Source: Paraburkholderia sp. (lineage in GTDB: Bacteria > Pseudomonadota > Gammaproteobacteria > Burkholderiales > Burkholderiaceae). From it: DNA of 32,361 nucleotides. The translations under genes and the position numbers were made by a program. Below, in pieces: positions 2,357 to 22,711 of this stretch (positions within the stretch are counted from its first letter, which is position 1; each line of letters opens with the position of its first letter). Location of the stretch: the NCBI GenBank assembly GCA_049523075.1, contig JBEKNG010000001.1:1-32361 (forward strand). The letters run 5' to 3'. The notes beneath the pieces are model-generated. The model made no database searches. It was not told where the DNA came from and saw nothing but the letters and a program-made list of their open reading frames with translations.

Positions 2357-2881
2357 CTAAGCACTTCGTGAACATGTCTGCATGACCCGGCGCGCGCTCA
2401 TCGCTCTCCAGTAGGTGATGAAGCGCCCGGTGAACACGCCTGCGACGACTCCGGACACCGCGGCACCGATCAACACATATATCCCGAGCGACGATGCGTC
2501 GGTTACGGTGGCCATTTCGAACCCGAGCCAGAATTTGGTGGCGAATATGGCAATCATCAGCAACAACGGCAACGGAGAGCCCGGCAGCATCACGGTATAG
2601 GCAATCGGATCGACTATGAAGCGGGTCCGGCTCGCGATGAAGACGCCACCCGCGATGCCGACGAATAAGGCCGTCATCCATGCGATCACAGCAGTCCACC
2701 CCGCCAGCGGTTCCGAAACCAGATGCGCGATGCCCCAGCCCGCAAAGATGAGCGGCACGATGGCGAGCCTGGCGAGTGGCGCGGTGCCGCTGTTTAGTGC
2801 CTTGAACCCGCGCGATACCAGGACGACGAGTAACACCCAGACCCAGATTGGCGTGCCGTGAATGATTGCTGCCGGTGACAT
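2357..2881 (-). CDS. Integral membrane protein (DUF6622-like)
   Basis: TPIWVWVLLVVLVSRG N-terminus, about 5 hydrophobic segments, RBS AAGGAGG. Confidence 0.75.
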   Translation of the reverse strand: MSPAAIIHGTPIWVWVLLVVLVSRGFKALNSGTAPLARLAIVPLIFAGWGIAHLVSEPLAGWTAVIAWMTALFVGIAGGVFIASRTRFIVDPIAYTVMLPGSPLPLLLMIAIFATKFWLGFEMATVTDASSLGIYVLIGAAVSGVVAGVFTGRFITYWRAMSARRVMQTCSRSA

Positions 2882-3060
2882 GATGACCTCCTTCAGACTT
2901 AATGATTTCCCGATGGGCGGTTAATGCCCGCACGACCGAATGAGATTGATCGTATCGGCACTGAATTAGCCTGGAATGAGGGGGACAGGCCTAAATCGAC
3001 CTCGGGGAACCGGAACGCGCTTTCGTCGGGTGTAGGTGTTGGCGCGGCTCCGCATCGTGC

Positions 3061-3083
3061 CCGTGCCGTGCCGTGCCGTGCCG
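3061..3083 (+). repeat. Pentanucleotide tandem repeat (CCGTG)x4
   Basis: ccgtgccgtgccgtgccgtgccg seen directly, with a degenerate copy just upstream. Confidence 0.8.
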
Positions 3084-3143
3084 CCGTTCGCCTGACGGCA
3101 GCACGCTGGGAGCGTGCGCCAATGCCCACGCTGCCTCCCATCC

Positions 3144-15425: not shown

Positions 15426-16075
15426 ATGTCCGCGTCTTTCATTGAGGTTGTCGCCCACGATGGTGGCCGTTTCAACGCTTACGTCGCACGGCCGGCACAA
15501 GGGTCCGGCTCGGGGCTTGTGCTGCTGCAGGAAATCTTCGGCATCAACGACTATATGAAGTCGATGGCCGACCGGTTTGCGGAAGAAGGTTATGTGGTGC
15601 TGGTGCCGGACCTGTTCTGGCGGGTAAAGCCAGGTGTCGTGCTGGGCTACGGCGAAGCTGACATGAAAGAGGCACTCGGTTATCTGCAGCGGTTCGATAT
15701 CGACCGCGCAGTGGACGATATCGCGGCCACCATCGGCGCGTCGCGCGCGCTGCCCGAGCAGGCGGGCAAGGTCGCGCGGATCGCATCGTCGATGAATTCG
15801 TCTTCAGTTGTACTCATACCTGCGAGATCGACTGGCTGCTGCCGGGCGTCGCGCCCACCGGAAAGTATTTCGAAGTGCCGATGCTGGCCGTCGTGTGCTT
15901 TCGCGGCGACAAGCTATACAACGAGCATATCTACTGGGATCAGGCCTCGGTGCTGGTCCAGGTCGGGTTGCTCGATCCGGCGGGGCTGCCGGTGGCGGGG
16001 ATCGAGAGCGCACGCAAGCTGCTCGATGAGAGCCTGCCGTCGAACCGGTTGATGGGTGCGAAGGCGAAGGCTTAG
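15426..16075 (+). pseudogene. Dienelactone hydrolase-SnoaL/ester-cyclase fusion gene with internal deletion and frameshift
   Basis: DLH N-terminus (LLQEIFGIN, VLVPDLFWR) stops at GKV (15771) before the catalytic GxCxGG; a -1 shifted frame continues ADRIVDEFVFSCTHTCEIDWLLPGVAPTGK...EHIYWDQASVLVQVGLL (SnoaL-like C-terminus) to TAG at 16075. Confidence 0.85.
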
Positions 16076-18543: not shown

Positions 18544-18665
18544 ACCATGCATAGGAGCACAGCGGAGGATGTGTCGCCGCCGCCCAGATTAAAAATGCGC
18601 AATCCTGATCAAATCAACCACTGTACCGCTCGCTATGCTGGCTTCATGCTGACATGAGAGCTGGT

Positions 18666-19499
18666 ATGAGCCCCGTCCAAAAGGCGCTCTGGTTTATCGA
18701 AAGCCACTTTTCGCGCGAACTGACGCTCGACGACATCGCGAGTTGCGGCTGCGTATCGCGCTATCACCTATCTCGCGCCTTCGAAGCGGCAACGGGCCGC
18801 CCGGTAATGCGCTACGTGCGGGCACGACGCCTGACCGAAGCGGCGCGGCGTCTGGCAAGCGGCGCACCCGACATTCTGGCGGTGGCGCTCGAGGCGGGAT
18901 ACGGCTCTCACGAGGCATTCACGCGCGCGTTTCGCGAGCAGTTCGGGCTCACGCCCGAGGCGCTGCGCGCGCAGGGACATCTCGACAACATCCGCCTCGT
19001 GGAGCCGATCAAAATGGACGAAACCCTTCTTGGCAACCTGGCGCCGCCTCGCTTCGAGAACGGCAAGCCGCTGCTCATCGCAGGCCTGACCGAGCGCTAC
19101 GACTGCGACACCAGTGTGGCCATTCCGGCCCAGTGGCAGCGCTTTAACGAATACTTCGGAAAGGTGCCCGGCCAGATCGGCAACGTCGCCTACGGCATCT
19201 GCTACAACGCCGACGACAGCGGCAATTTCGACTATCTGTGCGGCGTCGAAGTGAGTGACTTTTCCAGCCTGCCTGCCGGGTTGAACCACGTTCGGGTGCC
19301 GGAGCAGCGCTATGCAGTCTTCGCGCACCGCGAGCATGTAGCAGTGATTCGGCGTACGTGGAACACCATCTGGAACAAATGGCTGCCGGAATCGGGACAT
19401 ACGCCGGCCGACGCGCCGAACTTCGAACGCTACAGCGAGCAGTTCGACCCCGTCACGGGCATGGGCGGCTTCGAAATCTGGTTGCCGCTCAAGACGTGA
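18666..19499 (+). CDS. AraC-family regulator with C-terminal GyrI-like ligand-binding domain
   Basis: KALWFIESH...YVRARRLTEAA...GYGSHEAFTRAFREQFG HTH plus GyrI-like YAVFAH...IWNKWLP...FERY; alternative start at 18654. Confidence 0.92.
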   Translation: MSPVQKALWFIESHFSRELTLDDIASCGCVSRYHLSRAFEAATGRPVMRYVRARRLTEAARRLASGAPDILAVALEAGYGSHEAFTRAFREQFGLTPEALRAQGHLDNIRLVEPIKMDETLLGNLAPPRFENGKPLLIAGLTERYDCDTSVAIPAQWQRFNEYFGKVPGQIGNVAYGICYNADDSGNFDYLCGVEVSDFSSLPAGLNHVRVPEQRYAVFAHREHVAVIRRTWNTIWNKWLPESGHTPADAPNFERYSEQFDPVTGMGGFEIWLPLKT

Positions 19500-19600: not shown

Positions 19601-20848
19601 CTACCTCGCCGGCGCAAGCCCCGCGATCCGCAAACGCTCAACGCCCTCGGCAAGCGCAAGCACAACCTGTTGCCCGTCCCGTTCGCGGATACTGATCGTC
19701 CGGTCACGCTCATCGCGCGGTCCGACTGCGACGAAAACCGGCACCTGTTTTTCGCGAGCATCGACGATTTTCTTCTCCAGCCGCTCCGGACGATCATCGA
19801 GGACGACCCTGACGCCCGCCTCTTCAAGCGCCTGCACGACCTGCGCGGCATACGCCGCGCTGGCGTCGTTAATCGTCGCCACCGCCACCTGTTCCGGCGC
19901 GAGCCACAATGGCAGCCAGCCTTCGTGATGCTCGAGCAACATCGCGATGAAACGCTCCATACTCCCCAGCACGGCGTGATGAATCATCACTGGCCGCTCG
20001 CGCTCGTTGCGATCGTTGACATACTGTGCGTCGAGCCGCTCCGGCAACACGAAATCGAGTTGGATCGTGCCGCACTGCCAACTCCGTGCCCGGCTATCCA
20101 GCAGATGAAATTCCACTTTGGGACCGTAGAACGCGCCCTCACCCTCGCGCACATCGAACTGCAGTCCCGCCGCAAGCGCAGCTTTGGCCAAGGCCGCTTC
20201 GGCACGGTCCCACACCCCGTCAGCGCCTGCGCGTAGCGCAGGGCGCGTCGCTAGCGCCACCGAGAAAGCGGGAAATCCGAGGTCGGCATAGACGTTACGC
20301 AGCAAATCGCAAAAGCGCCCGACTTCGACCTCGATCTGCGCTTCCGTGCAAAACACATGCGCGTCGTCCTGTACGAACGCGCGCGTGCGCTTGAGCCCTT
20401 CCAGCGAACCGGAAGGTTCATCGCGATGACAGGCGCCGAACTCGCTATAGCGCACCGGTAACTCGCGGTAGGAACGCACGCGCTGATTGAACACCTGCAC
20501 GTGGCACGGACAGCTCATGGGCTTCAGACACAGCGCACGTGCTTCGGACGCGTCATCCGCGTCGCGCTCATCGTTCGCGCTGCCCGAGTCCTGTCCTTCG
20601 GACAACGAATACATGTTGGCGCCGAATTTCTCCCAATGACCGCTGCGTTCCCAGATCGAACGGGCGAGCAGTTGCGGCGTGCGAATTTCGCGGAAGCCCG
20701 CACGCCGCATTCGGCGGCGAATATAGTCTTCCAGCACGCGGTACAGTTCCCAGCCTCGCGGATGCCAGAAGACCATGCCAGGGCCTTCCTCCTGTTGATG
20801 GAAAAGGTCCAGCTTGTTACCCAATACGCGATGATCGATGTCGTTCAC
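19601..20848 (-). CDS. thrS: Threonyl-tRNA synthetase paralog lacking the N-terminal TGS and editing domains (415 aa)
   Basis: Starts directly at DHRVLG...LF (catalytic-domain start); SGHWEKF, KPMSCP, HRDEPSG, QDDAH, GAFYGPK, QCGTIQLDF, MIHHAVLGSMERF, P.WLAP and anticodon-binding domain; GGAG RBS 6 nt before GTG. Confidence 0.93.
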   Translation of the reverse strand: MNDIDHRVLGNKLDLFHQQEEGPGMVFWHPRGWELYRVLEDYIRRRMRRAGFREIRTPQLLARSIWERSGHWEKFGANMYSLSEGQDSGSANDERDADDASEARALCLKPMSCPCHVQVFNQRVRSYRELPVRYSEFGACHRDEPSGSLEGLKRTRAFVQDDAHVFCTEAQIEVEVGRFCDLLRNVYADLGFPAFSVALATRPALRAGADGVWDRAEAALAKAALAAGLQFDVREGEGAFYGPKVEFHLLDSRARSWQCGTIQLDFVLPERLDAQYVNDRNERERPVMIHHAVLGSMERFIAMLLEHHEGWLPLWLAPEQVAVATINDASAAYAAQVVQALEEAGVRVVLDDRPERLEKKIVDAREKQVPVFVAVGPRDERDRTISIRERDGQQVVLALAEGVERLRIAGLAPAR

Positions 20849-20854
20849 AGTACG

Positions 20855-21004
20855 CTCCGTTTGACAAGAGCCATCGACGGAGGGCTATAAACGCCAAGGG
20901 CCCCGTCCGTCTCCGGCGAGGCCCTTGGGGGTTTGCAGCAGCTTCTTGCCTTAGCGCGCGCAACCTCCAGACGACCCGCCCGTGAGGGTGGTCGTCGTGG
21001 TGGT
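20855..21004 (-). promoter_or_regulatory. Ribosome-mediated attenuator (alternative hairpins) upstream of the short thrS
   Basis: GACGACC(20996-20990)/GGTCGTC(20976-20970); GGAGGTTGC(20968-20960)/GCAAACCCCC(20936-20927); CCAAGGGCCTCG(20928-20917)/CGGGGCCCTTGG(20905-20894) capped by CCG-GAGA-CGG; CTCCGT(20882-20877)/ACGGAG SD (20860-20855). Confidence 0.8.
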
Positions 21005-21037
21005 GACAGCCGCGAAGGAAAGCGAATAGAGGTCCAT
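20951..21037 (-). CDS. Thr-rich leader peptide (thrL-like, 28 aa) MDLYSLSFAAVTTTTTTLTGGSSGGCAR
   Basis: Manual translation; codons ACC ACC ACG ACG ACC ACC CTC ACG (7 Thr in 8 codons) about 100 nt upstream of a ThrRS gene and overlapping the hairpins; below the ORF-track size cut-off. Confidence 0.87.
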   Translation of the reverse strand: MDLYSLSFAAVTTTTTTLTGGSSGGCAR

Positions 21038-21043
21038 GTACCG

Positions 21044-21073
21044 ACATTAAACGATTTGACGGCGATACGTCAA
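21044..21073 (-). promoter_or_regulatory. Candidate sigma70 promoter for a leaderless leader-peptide transcript
   Basis: TTGACG (21073-21068) with TTTAAT at 16 nt or TAATGT at 18 nt spacing, 6-8 nt before the leader ATG; no SD precedes that ATG. Confidence 0.55.
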
Positions 21074-21672
21074 TCGATGCCTGTGGGAATTTCGTGCACA
21101 CCACGCGCCGCCGGCTCGACCTCAAACGCCTCGCCGGTGGCAAAAAACGTCCCGCCCGCCACGTAATGACACGTGCGCAATTCCGGGTCATCGCCGAAGT
21201 GCCAGCGGTTGTTCGAGTAGACCCGGCTATCCGCATACGCGGCGACCACTTCGCCGATGATCAGATCGTGGCGCTGGCTATCGTCAGGAATCACCTTGCA
21301 TTCGAGCCACGTTATGCAACCGGCTAGCATCGGCACGTCGATGCGCTGCCCCGCAAACGTCTCGAGGCCGAACGCGGCGAACTTGTCGAGATCGACGCCG
21401 GGCGTGGTGCCGACCGCGAGCGTTTGTCGCGCGAACGCGCGGCTCGGCAATTGCAGCCCGAACACGCCGCTTGCTTCGATCAGTTGCCGCGTGAGCGTGC
21501 GGCTGTCGACCACCACCACGACCTTGGGCGGATTGAAATCCAGCGGCATCGCCCACGACGCCGCCATGACGTTCGTGCGCCCCGCATGGGCGCTGGTGAT
21601 GATGGTGACGGGTCCGTGATTCAGTAACTGCGTAGCCCGTGACAATTCCACTGTTTCTCTGGTGCCTTTCAT
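21070..21672 (-). CDS. Flavin reductase-like (DIM6/NTAB) FMN-binding protein
   Basis: LLNHGPVTIITS, NVMAASWAMPLDFNPP, WLECKV, HDLIIGEVVAA; RBS GAAGGG before ATG 21672. Confidence 0.9.
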   Translation of the reverse strand: MKGTRETVELSRATQLLNHGPVTIITSAHAGRTNVMAASWAMPLDFNPPKVVVVVDSRTLTRQLIEASGVFGLQLPSRAFARQTLAVGTTPGVDLDKFAAFGLETFAGQRIDVPMLAGCITWLECKVIPDDSQRHDLIIGEVVAAYADSRVYSNNRWHFGDDPELRTCHYVAGGTFFATGEAFEVEPAARGVHEIPTGID

Positions 21673-21898: not shown

Positions 21899-22711
21899 AT
21901 GTTCACCCAATACATCGTCCAGTGGGATCTGATACCTGATGGCAACCCGATCGTCACGCACAGCAGTCGCCTGTTGCCAGTGCGTCAGCACGGTGTTGCA
22001 GCCATGCTCAAGATTGCCCAGGGGGTCGAGGAACGCGCCGGCGGCCGGCTGATGGTCTGGTGGAACGGTGTCGGTGCCGCCCGCGTACTTGCGCATGACG
22101 GCGACGCGTTGTTGCTGGAGCGAGCCGAAAACCCGCATTTGCTGGTGGAGATGTCCCGACACGGACAAGACGACGAGGCCGCCAGGATTCTTTGCTCGGC
22201 CGCTGCGCGGCTGCACCGGCCGCGTGACCCGCGGATGACAGAACCGGATCTGTCCGAGCTGGTGCCGCTCGACCGCTGGTTCCGCAGTCTGTGGCCAGCA
22301 GCGCAGCAACACGGCGAACTGCTCGCGCAGTGCGCCAAGGCCGCACGTGAACTACTCGCCGCGCCGGAGGATGTGGTGATCCTGCACGGCGACATCCATC
22401 ATGGCAACGTGCTGGACTTCGGCGCACGTGGCTGGCTCGCGATTGACCCCAAAGGGCTCTATGGCGAGCGCGGCTTCGACTATGCGAATATCTTCTGCAA
22501 CCCCGATCGTGACACGGCGCTCGTGCCCGGCCGGTTTGAGTGGCGCGTCAACCGCGTGGTGCAGGAGGCCGGGCTGGAAAGGCAGCGTTTGCTGCAATGG
22601 ATACTCGCCTGGTCGGGACTATCCGCTGCGTGGATTCTGGAGACCGGCGAAACACCCGACGTGGACTACGATATAGCGCGGCTTGCGGCGGCGGCCTTGC
22701 TGCATGACTAG
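21899..22711 (+). CDS. APH(6)-family aminoglycoside/hydroxyurea resistance kinase (StrB-like)
   Basis: THSSRLLPV, AMLK, WWNGVGAARVLA, LHGDIHHGNVLDFG..GWLAIDPKGL.GERGFDYANIFCNP. Confidence 0.9.
   Translation: MFTQYIVQWDLIPDGNPIVTHSSRLLPVRQHGVAAMLKIAQGVEERAGGRLMVWWNGVGAARVLAHDGDALLLERAENPHLLVEMSRHGQDDEAARILCSAAARLHRPRDPRMTEPDLSELVPLDRWFRSLWPAAQQHGELLAQCAKAARELLAAPEDVVILHGDIHHGNVLDFGARGWLAIDPKGLYGERGFDYANIFCNPDRDTALVPGRFEWRVNRVVQEAGLERQRLLQWILAWSGLSAAWILETGETPDVDYDIARLAAAALLHD

Follow-up and report, generated by a model that had tools for sequence, protein, structure and literature searches.

The stretch of DNA analysed here (the window) comprises 32,361 nucleotides of a Paraburkholderia genome with an assembly of 6.08 Mb, 61.7% GC, and 82% completeness. 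On its minus strand, it carries a gene for a short threonyl-tRNA synthetase (ThrRS), hereafter the short thrS (19601..20848), preceded by a leader upstream open reading frame (uORF) of 28 codons (20951..21037) and by an RNA that is predicted to fold into alternative hairpins.

The short threonyl-tRNA synthetase

The short thrS begins with GTG and encodes a protein of 415 aa composed of the catalytic and anticodon-binding domains only. Pfam recognizes tRNA-synt_2b and HGTP_anticodon and no other domain, the match to the TIGR00418 thrS profile begins at profile position 171 (452 bits; cut-off 383.65), and the alignment with E. coli ThrRS starts at residue 243. By all three measures the N-terminal TGS and editing domains are missing, which confirms the earlier sequence-only reading, in which the enzyme begins at the catalytic domain. 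No editing motif was found upstream of the gene in 52 loci of the clade formed by this protein and its short relatives (the short clade).

In E. coli numbering, transferred through a Buttiauxella locus (L073) and anchored at D243, the core features of a bacterial-type ThrRS are present, including the Zn ligands C334, H385, and H511 and the catalytic residues R363, D383, Y462, and R520. All 118 clade sequences examined, many of which are close relatives, share these residues and Q484 without change. The active-site motifs also carry clade-specific changes, the placement of which was judged by E. coli numbering only: N333S (98%), G336C (87%), N364D (79%), M374K (69%), V376T (88%), L445A (99%), and R512H (97%). 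In 10 of 10 pairs that include the window protein, dN/dS lies between 0.05 and 0.11, indicating purifying selection and hence a maintained protein; together with the common start across the clade, these values rule out a pseudogene or a truncation artefact.

The anticodon-binding domain is less conventional. R609 is kept in the clade and E600 is replaced by D, but N575 and R583, found in 99–100% of 77 housekeeping cores, have given way to P/A/S and V/M/F, respectively, and the further replacements K577R, H585A, and T586R occur. In E. coli ThrRS, residues of the N575 and R583 region contact bases 32/34 and 37/38 of the tRNA (PMC4756836, available text). Since these two contacts and K246 and K249, all near-invariant in housekeeping enzymes, are lost in the short ThrRS, normal charging by it is not assured.

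The protein is also poor in threonine: it has 7 Thr residues, the housekeeping copy 25. A rough coding filter gave 1,863 long ORFs, of which no more than two have a lower Thr content, and the composition-corrected Thr residual of the short ThrRS ranks 2 of 1,863, so that GC drift is an insufficient explanation for the window protein. For the clade as a whole, the median in GC-matched cores is 9 Thr (range 4–18) versus 15, and GC drift might account for this difference, as Lys and Asn are as depleted as Thr. Avoidance of all codons starting with A is unsupported, AGY and AGR codons not being reduced. Outside the clade, four short ThrRSs (P0122, P0179, P0202, and P0211) contain 1–4 Thr in 403–416 aa, whereas several other short representatives contain 14–23; the former counts suggest that threonine avoidance may have arisen repeatedly. 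Threonine poverty fits any state in which Thr-tRNA is scarce, be it through starvation or through inhibition, and so cannot tell the two apart.

Second copy, distribution, and neighbourhood

The ThrRS genes of the genome are the short copy and one other, a housekeeping thrS of 635 aa on contig G000:C40, which is followed by infC, rpmI, rplT, pheS, and pheT (names from translations). The sequence-only reading regarded the short gene as an accessory copy and proposed looking for a separate full-length thrS-infC; its presence supports this view and, along with the full-length copies in same-genus genomes, rules out the short gene as the sole thrS. More generally, none of the three findings that would contradict that reading and could be sought in silico was made.

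The named proteins closest to the short ThrRS come from Paraburkholderia, and relatives of ~390–430 aa occur in Paraburkholderia, Burkholderia, Caballeronia, Bradyrhizobium, Inquilinus, Acidiphilium, Edaphobacter, and metagenomes. Within the genus, 11 of 36 genomes carry the short copy, and all 11 also have the full-length one, whereas none of 24 genomes from other families of the order carries it. Among 10 more distant genomes, eight have a long second copy, one has a partial second match, and one (G068, 2.5 Mb) has the short copy only. In a quick midpoint-rooted tree of a chosen subset (29 short and 44 full-length cores, with this short lineage as the only one included), a branch supported by 100% SH-aLRT separates the short cores from the full-length ones. 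One copy of the short thrS resides on the conjugative plasmid pM7012, in whose RefSeq record the leader is unannotated.

In the window, the short thrS is accompanied by a convergent AraC/GyrI-like regulator (18654-19499, plus strand), a flavin-reductase-like gene (21070-21669, minus strand), and, two genes away, a gene resembling the APH(6) family of aminoglycoside phosphotransferases (21899-22711, plus strand), which scores below all NCBIfam cut-offs. The regulator and the flavin-reductase-like gene recur only in close relatives, and no gene neighbour recurs beyond ~13 close loci. Gene clusters around the short-thrS loci, annotated in the window only, revealed no adjacent editing factor beyond close relatives. 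No tRNA gene linked to the short loci was seen either, almost all matches being tRNA-Val(GAC), as at the housekeeping loci. Two side observations concern the window itself: the APH(6)-like gene has the appearance of a resistance-family member, and an ORF at 15426-16052 (plus strand) has a dienelactone-hydrolase-like start and a tail that looks unrelated by eye, and is possibly frameshifted or deleted.

The threonine-rich leader

The uORF has Thr at codons 12–17 and 19, that is, seven Thr in eight codons. The sequence-only reading had pointed to this run, and it is indeed exceptional: among 47,201 ends of short ATG ORFs in the genome, the leader uORF is the only one with such a density. That reading also proposed a check for Thr-run uORFs before homologs of about 400 aa, and the feature proved to be conserved. 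A Thr-rich uORF lies upstream of the gene in all 52 short-clade loci with usable upstream DNA (near-duplicates included; L126 and L135, both cut, left out), with 94–143 nt between its end and the thrS start. The maximum number of Thr per eight codons is 7 in 21 loci, 6 in 11, 5 in 3, 4 in 15, and 3 in 2, so that 50 of the 52 reach at least 4; among 117 full-length thrS loci, by comparison, none reaches 5 and 10 reach 4 within 300 nt upstream. Start, frame, and stop of the uORF are conserved in 52 of 52 loci, and within the Thr run the first and second codon positions are more conserved (0.78–1.0) than the third (0.51–0.88 at five of six Thr codons).

A predicted −35 box, TTGACG (21068..21073, minus strand), overlaps the stop codon of the flavin-reductase-like gene, and a predicted −10 box, TAATGT (21044..21049, minus strand), is recognizable from its sequence and spacing. 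In 49 of the 52 loci, TTGAC recurs 34–39 nt upstream of the uORF; two of the three exceptions are cut or without upstream DNA. With the −10 box at −12..−7, transcription is predicted to start on the ATG of the uORF, and the arrangement of the two boxes suggests a leaderless leader transcript; a Shine-Dalgarno sequence is absent before the uORF. A consensus promoter scan of the leader region called no promoter. By eye, no conserved operator was seen besides the −35 and −10 boxes, and an inverted repeat over the −35 box was dropped as an operator candidate, as it is lost in more distant loci.

Rfam, including its covariance model of the Thr leader (RF00506), gave no match for the leader at E-values up to 10 (positions 20700-21200) and none at the gathering score in five other loci. 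A family-wide motif scan found matches in 20 of 301 genomes, with background matches in the control as well. As a separate observation, a leader like that of the short clade precedes a full-length thrS in Azospirillum griseum (L024, ~2860-3100), upstream of a second TTGACA and just beyond the 300-nt range used for the full-length count; the near-identical thrS of L021 has no such leader, and L024 may have captured the attenuator recently.

Folding of the leader RNA and the predicted switch

On the minus strand, folding and covariation delineate segment 1, which contains the Thr codons (the sensor) and forms the 5′ arm of a protector helix 1:2 (20981..21004), segment 2, which pairs either with segment 1 or, as an antiterminator, with segment 3 (20963..20980), and a GC-rich, terminator-like hairpin 3:4 (20894..20928). 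The stem is followed by a weak U-tail with 4 U in 8 (20886..20893), whose partner in the OFF fold is the region of the thrS start. Segment 5 (20876..20885) has two predicted partners, the ribosome-binding site in the OFF state and segment 4 in the ON state. The Shine-Dalgarno sequence of the short thrS, GGAG (20855..20858), is recognized from sequence, and its G180, G181, and A182 are conserved in at least 90% of 41 leaders, a non-redundant subset of the 52 loci.

The leader folds with −95.6 kcal/mol (z = −4.55), a stability reached by none of 200 shuffles. Free of ribosomes, it is predicted to form helices 1:2 and 3:4, together with a long helix that covers the Shine-Dalgarno sequence and the GTG. 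The Thr codons overlap helix 1:2, which is mutually exclusive with 2:3, in line with the sequence-only reading, which had placed these codons over alternative hairpins. In folds of the nascent window RNA, with segment 4 not yet made and with three ribosome footprint sizes, a ribosome blocking codons 12–16 yields 13–14 bp of 2:3, whereas no 2:3 pair forms without a ribosome or with one at codons 21–23 or beyond. Over the 41 leaders, the median of 2:3 is 14.4 bp in the stalled state versus 2.6 bp without a ribosome (with the ribosome at the stop codon, the design of this test forces a zero), although 2:3 of at least 12 bp is predicted even without a ribosome in 7 of them. At equilibrium on the full-length RNA, 3:4 wins for every ribosome position, so the switch must be kinetic. 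Helix choice is kinetic in classical attenuators as well.

Helix 1:2 is paired in 74% and helix 2:3 in 83% (core, 95.5%), while 94% of the cells of helix 3:4 are paired, with two-sided changes at 6 of its 16 pairs; covariation in all three exceeds 500 of 500 shuffles and the slid controls, comparisons that are inflated because the loci are related and the pairs derive from the window's own sequence. For 4:5 (89% paired) and 5:6 (73% paired), no covariation beyond shuffles was found. The dependence of the switch on ribosome stalling, as proposed earlier, thus finds computational support in the nascent folds and in covariation.

Once 2:3 is fixed, 4:5 forms in 41 of 41 leaders. Segment 5 is predicted to cover the Shine-Dalgarno sequence in the OFF fold of the window, L001, L012, L016, and L139, and the start codon in that of L009, L010, and L011. 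In the window, the calculated cost of opening the ribosome-binding site is 13.9 kcal/mol OFF versus 6.2 kcal/mol ON, with a weak 5-bp hairpin still lying over the Shine-Dalgarno sequence in the ON fold. Of the 41 leaders, 31 have an OFF–ON gap of 2 kcal/mol or more; the gap exceeds the spacer-shuffled mean in 38 and is reached by at most 1 of 20 shuffles in 23. Among 17 Burkholderiaceae-type leaders, however, there are 9 whose ON state at equilibrium is less than 2 kcal/mol easier to open than OFF. The 8 nt that follow the core stem contain 3 to 6 T across the 41 leaders and 3 T in the window, and a terminator scan did not call hairpin 3:4 with its U-tail. A trade-off between a weak U-tail and strong masking of the ribosome-binding site was not found, the correlation having the opposite sign (rho 0.41). 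Given the weak U-tail of the window and the unmasking of the ribosome-binding site, mixed control with a real translational share is expected.

These predictions can be assembled into a mechanism. Transcription would begin at the leader ATG. With ample Thr-tRNA, the ribosome would reach the stop codon and cover segment 2, allowing hairpin 3:4 to form, whereupon the RNA would either terminate, helped by a U-tail that is weak in the window and stronger in many alphaproteobacterial copies, or be shut off by segment 5 locking the ribosome-binding site of thrS. With scarce Thr-tRNA, the ribosome would stall at codons 12–17, segment 2 would capture segment 3, and the freed segment 4 would capture segment 5, so that the short thrS would be both transcribed and translated. 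Needing 7 Thr and not 25, the short ThrRS could still be made during a shortage of Thr-tRNA. Such a sensor would be blind to the cause of the shortage, be it Thr starvation or an inhibited or damaged main enzyme.

Relation to known systems

E. coli thrL-thrABC and pheM-pheST are classical leader-peptide attenuators, and pheM controls a synthetase. The leader described here shares with thrL and pheM the run of cognate codons over a protector helix and the mutually exclusive 1:2, 2:3, and 3:4 pairings. Unlike thrL, it has Thr codons only and no Ile codons, does not match Rfam, and targets a spare ThrRS; unlike the classical attenuators, it is probably leaderless, has a weak U-tail, and adds a 4:5/5:RBS relay. 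The second ThrRS gene of Bacillus subtilis, thrZ, is induced through a T-box when tRNAThr charging falls, and its enzyme is full-length. The short thrS resembles thrZ as a second ThrRS gene with predicted induction by falling tRNAThr charging, and differs from it in sensing through a leader peptide and not through T-box RNA, as well as in the length of the enzyme. A leader terminator precedes thrZ (PMC3997798, available text).

In Streptomyces lividans, a leaderless, Thr-containing thrL with a hairpin lacking a clear U-run lies before thrS (SLIV_19410; PMC8079986, available text). Like the leader described here, which is probably leaderless too, it is a Thr leader before a thrS, but it contains only two Thr codons, encodes an unrelated peptide, and belongs to Actinomycetota. 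The auxiliary trpRS1 of S. coelicolor is controlled by ribosome-mediated attenuation (Vecchione and Sello 2010, available part) and is linked to indolmycin resistance (PMC9437257, available text). The short thrS is likewise an auxiliary synthetase gene under (predicted) ribosome-mediated attenuation, yet it differs from trpRS1, where resistance has been demonstrated, in that the enzyme lacks known resistance residues. Histidine leaders, furthermore, precede hisS paralogs (PMC2965389, available text).

At the protein level, Anabaena T2 is also a second ThrRS poor in editing, which is stress-induced and trans-edited by the housekeeping copy; according to the available text of PMC4787780, it retains a degenerate editing domain and is induced transcriptionally by zinc limitation. 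ObaO and the ThrRS of borrelidin producers are likewise second copies, in Burkholderiaceae and others (10.1101/704981, PMC11252418, and PMC4389257, available parts). As described there, ObaO lies in the obafluorin (oba) cluster, has an N-terminal region (the construct starts at residue 241), and carries S464/M, whereas the short ThrRS has G463/L489 and no cluster alongside. Yeast mitochondrial MST1 similarly has no editing domain and leaves the N575 and R583 contacts unused, but it is the sole organellar enzyme and is not regulated like the short thrS (PMC4756836, available text).

The principle is therefore known from thrZ, trpRS1, and the Streptomyces thrL-thrS, while the leader element itself is absent from Rfam. 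Attenuators of thrS have reportedly been predicted in proteobacteria by Vitreschak 2004 and Lopatovskaya 2010, and the supplements of these papers may list the present loci. A literature search, whose coverage excluded most subscription papers, returned no account of the short-ThrRS clade or its leader, and the available text of PMC6614838 and PMC9976931 holds nothing on this leader element.

Possible roles of the short thrS

We consider it highly probable that a spare ThrRS is regulated here by the sensing of Thr-tRNA. The reading that we prefer, with a probability of about 0.6, is that the short thrS encodes a Thr-codon-attenuated backup synthetase, which would be induced by a shortage of Thr-tRNA of any cause. 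A bolder version, in which a widespread proteobacterial clade of minimal ThrRSs, with a remodelled anticodon domain and changed active-site loops, acts as an emergency synthetase that either resists other natural inhibitors or purposely loads serine, under a leaderless six-segment relay of termination and initiation, seems doubtful to us.

If the uORF were untranslated, the hairpin would serve only to terminate transcription or to structure the RNA, and the run of Thr codons would be incidental. The missing Shine-Dalgarno sequence, the negative promoter scan, and the participation of the ACC repeats in helix 1:2 would suit such a case, which is nevertheless barely credible given the conserved start, frame, and stop, the variable third positions beside constrained first and second ones, and the TTGAC at a fixed distance in 49 of 52 loci. 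The more serious competitor keeps the same switch and has the gene selected as an inhibitor-resistant ThrRS (against obafluorin, borrelidin, or another soil antibiotic), as in the case of Streptomyces trpRS1. The patchy and mobile distribution, the clade-specific active-site changes from N333S to R512H, the APH(6)-like gene two genes away, and the Thr poverty, equally useful under inhibition, speak for it, and a larger amount of ThrRS alone confers borrelidin resistance on E. coli (PMC4389257, available text). The residues tell otherwise. The G463S form of ObaO confers resistance to both obafluorin and borrelidin (PMC11252418, available text), but the ObaO-type Ser463 (with Met489) is absent here, the clade having G463 in 99% and L489 in 95%. 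Similarly, the four borrelidin-resistance substitutions of S. parvulus (312, 461, 488, and 489) and the changes at H309 and L489 (PMC4389257, available text) have no counterpart at E. coli positions 309, 312 (Tyr), 461 (His), 488 (Tyr), and 489, which hold H, K, F, V, and L here (312, 461, and 488 mapped by offset from human numbering). With G463, L489, H309, and F461 all of the sensitive type, resistance to obafluorin or borrelidin by known means is unsupported, which weakens the resistance reading offered from the sequence. No biosynthetic cluster was seen beside the gene, the window neighbours do not form an obafluorin cluster, and no neighbour recurs past the close loci. According to the available part of 10.1101/704981, these genera have additional ThrRS copies solely in association with the oba cluster; judged from the window neighbours, the short-ThrRS clade appears to contradict this. 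Overall, selection for resistance strikes us as unlikely, although it might act through the clade-specific active-site changes, dosage, or other inhibitors.

Two further proposals concern the purpose of the enzyme. It might step in when the main ThrRS is lost to a lack of zinc or to oxidative damage, with the attenuator reading the resulting drop in Thr-tRNA, by analogy with Anabaena T2, which is induced by low zinc, impaired in editing, and trans-edited by T1 (PMC4787780, available text); the extra Cys and His beside the Zn ligands (C336 and H512) would agree. We find this improbable, as all three Zn ligands are retained, neither the window nor pM7012 shows a zinc-related neighbour, and no conserved operator besides the promoter boxes was seen by eye. 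Even less probable, in our view, is a deliberate mistranslator that places Ser on tRNAThr, or a charger of under-modified or non-standard tRNAs, which would keep ribosomes moving. The missing editing domain and the replacements at N575, R583, K577, H585, and T586 are what such an enzyme might display, but R609 persists and position 600 is still acidic, the short loci showed no linked tRNA gene, and MST1, also without editing domain and contacts, charges tRNAThr (PMC4756836, available text). Moreover, the genome holds the editing domain of the housekeeping ThrRS, AlaRS, a free-standing AlaX-like protein of ~240 aa as a candidate trans-editing factor (L193, G000:C168:2332-2460), and three YbaK/ProXp matches. 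The same inventory qualifies an earlier suggestion that fidelity is traded for continued translation: the editing domain is missing as claimed, whereas a loss of Ser editing is unproven, because the housekeeping editing domain could act in trans and the AlaX-like protein is present. Trans-editing of an editing-poor second ThrRS has been demonstrated in Anabaena (PMC4787780, available text), and the housekeeping enzyme would probably correct, in trans, the Ser-tRNAThr made by the short ThrRS.

As a backup synthetase, the short thrS would offer a testable case for why bacteria retain second synthetases, combining a direct Thr-tRNA sensor with a nearly threonine-free enzyme, and its leader, unannotated and missing from Rfam, represents a new regulatory RNA family to catalogue. 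Should the clade-specific residues instead make the enzyme drug-resistant, this would suggest that further ThrRS inhibitors exist in soil, which matters for ThrRS-directed antibiotics, and the leader could serve as a reporter for ThrRS-inhibiting compounds.

The leader of the housekeeping thrS

A separate observation concerns the housekeeping gene. Before it, just after tRNA-Val(GAC), lies a 14-codon uORF with five Thr codons, followed by a strong U-tailed terminator (L191, G000:C40:5954-6128). This uORF was present in 11 of 11 same-genus loci and in 0 of 7 from other families, and the fold test gave no sharp switch for this leader. The leaders of the short and the housekeeping thrS may be tuned to different thresholds.
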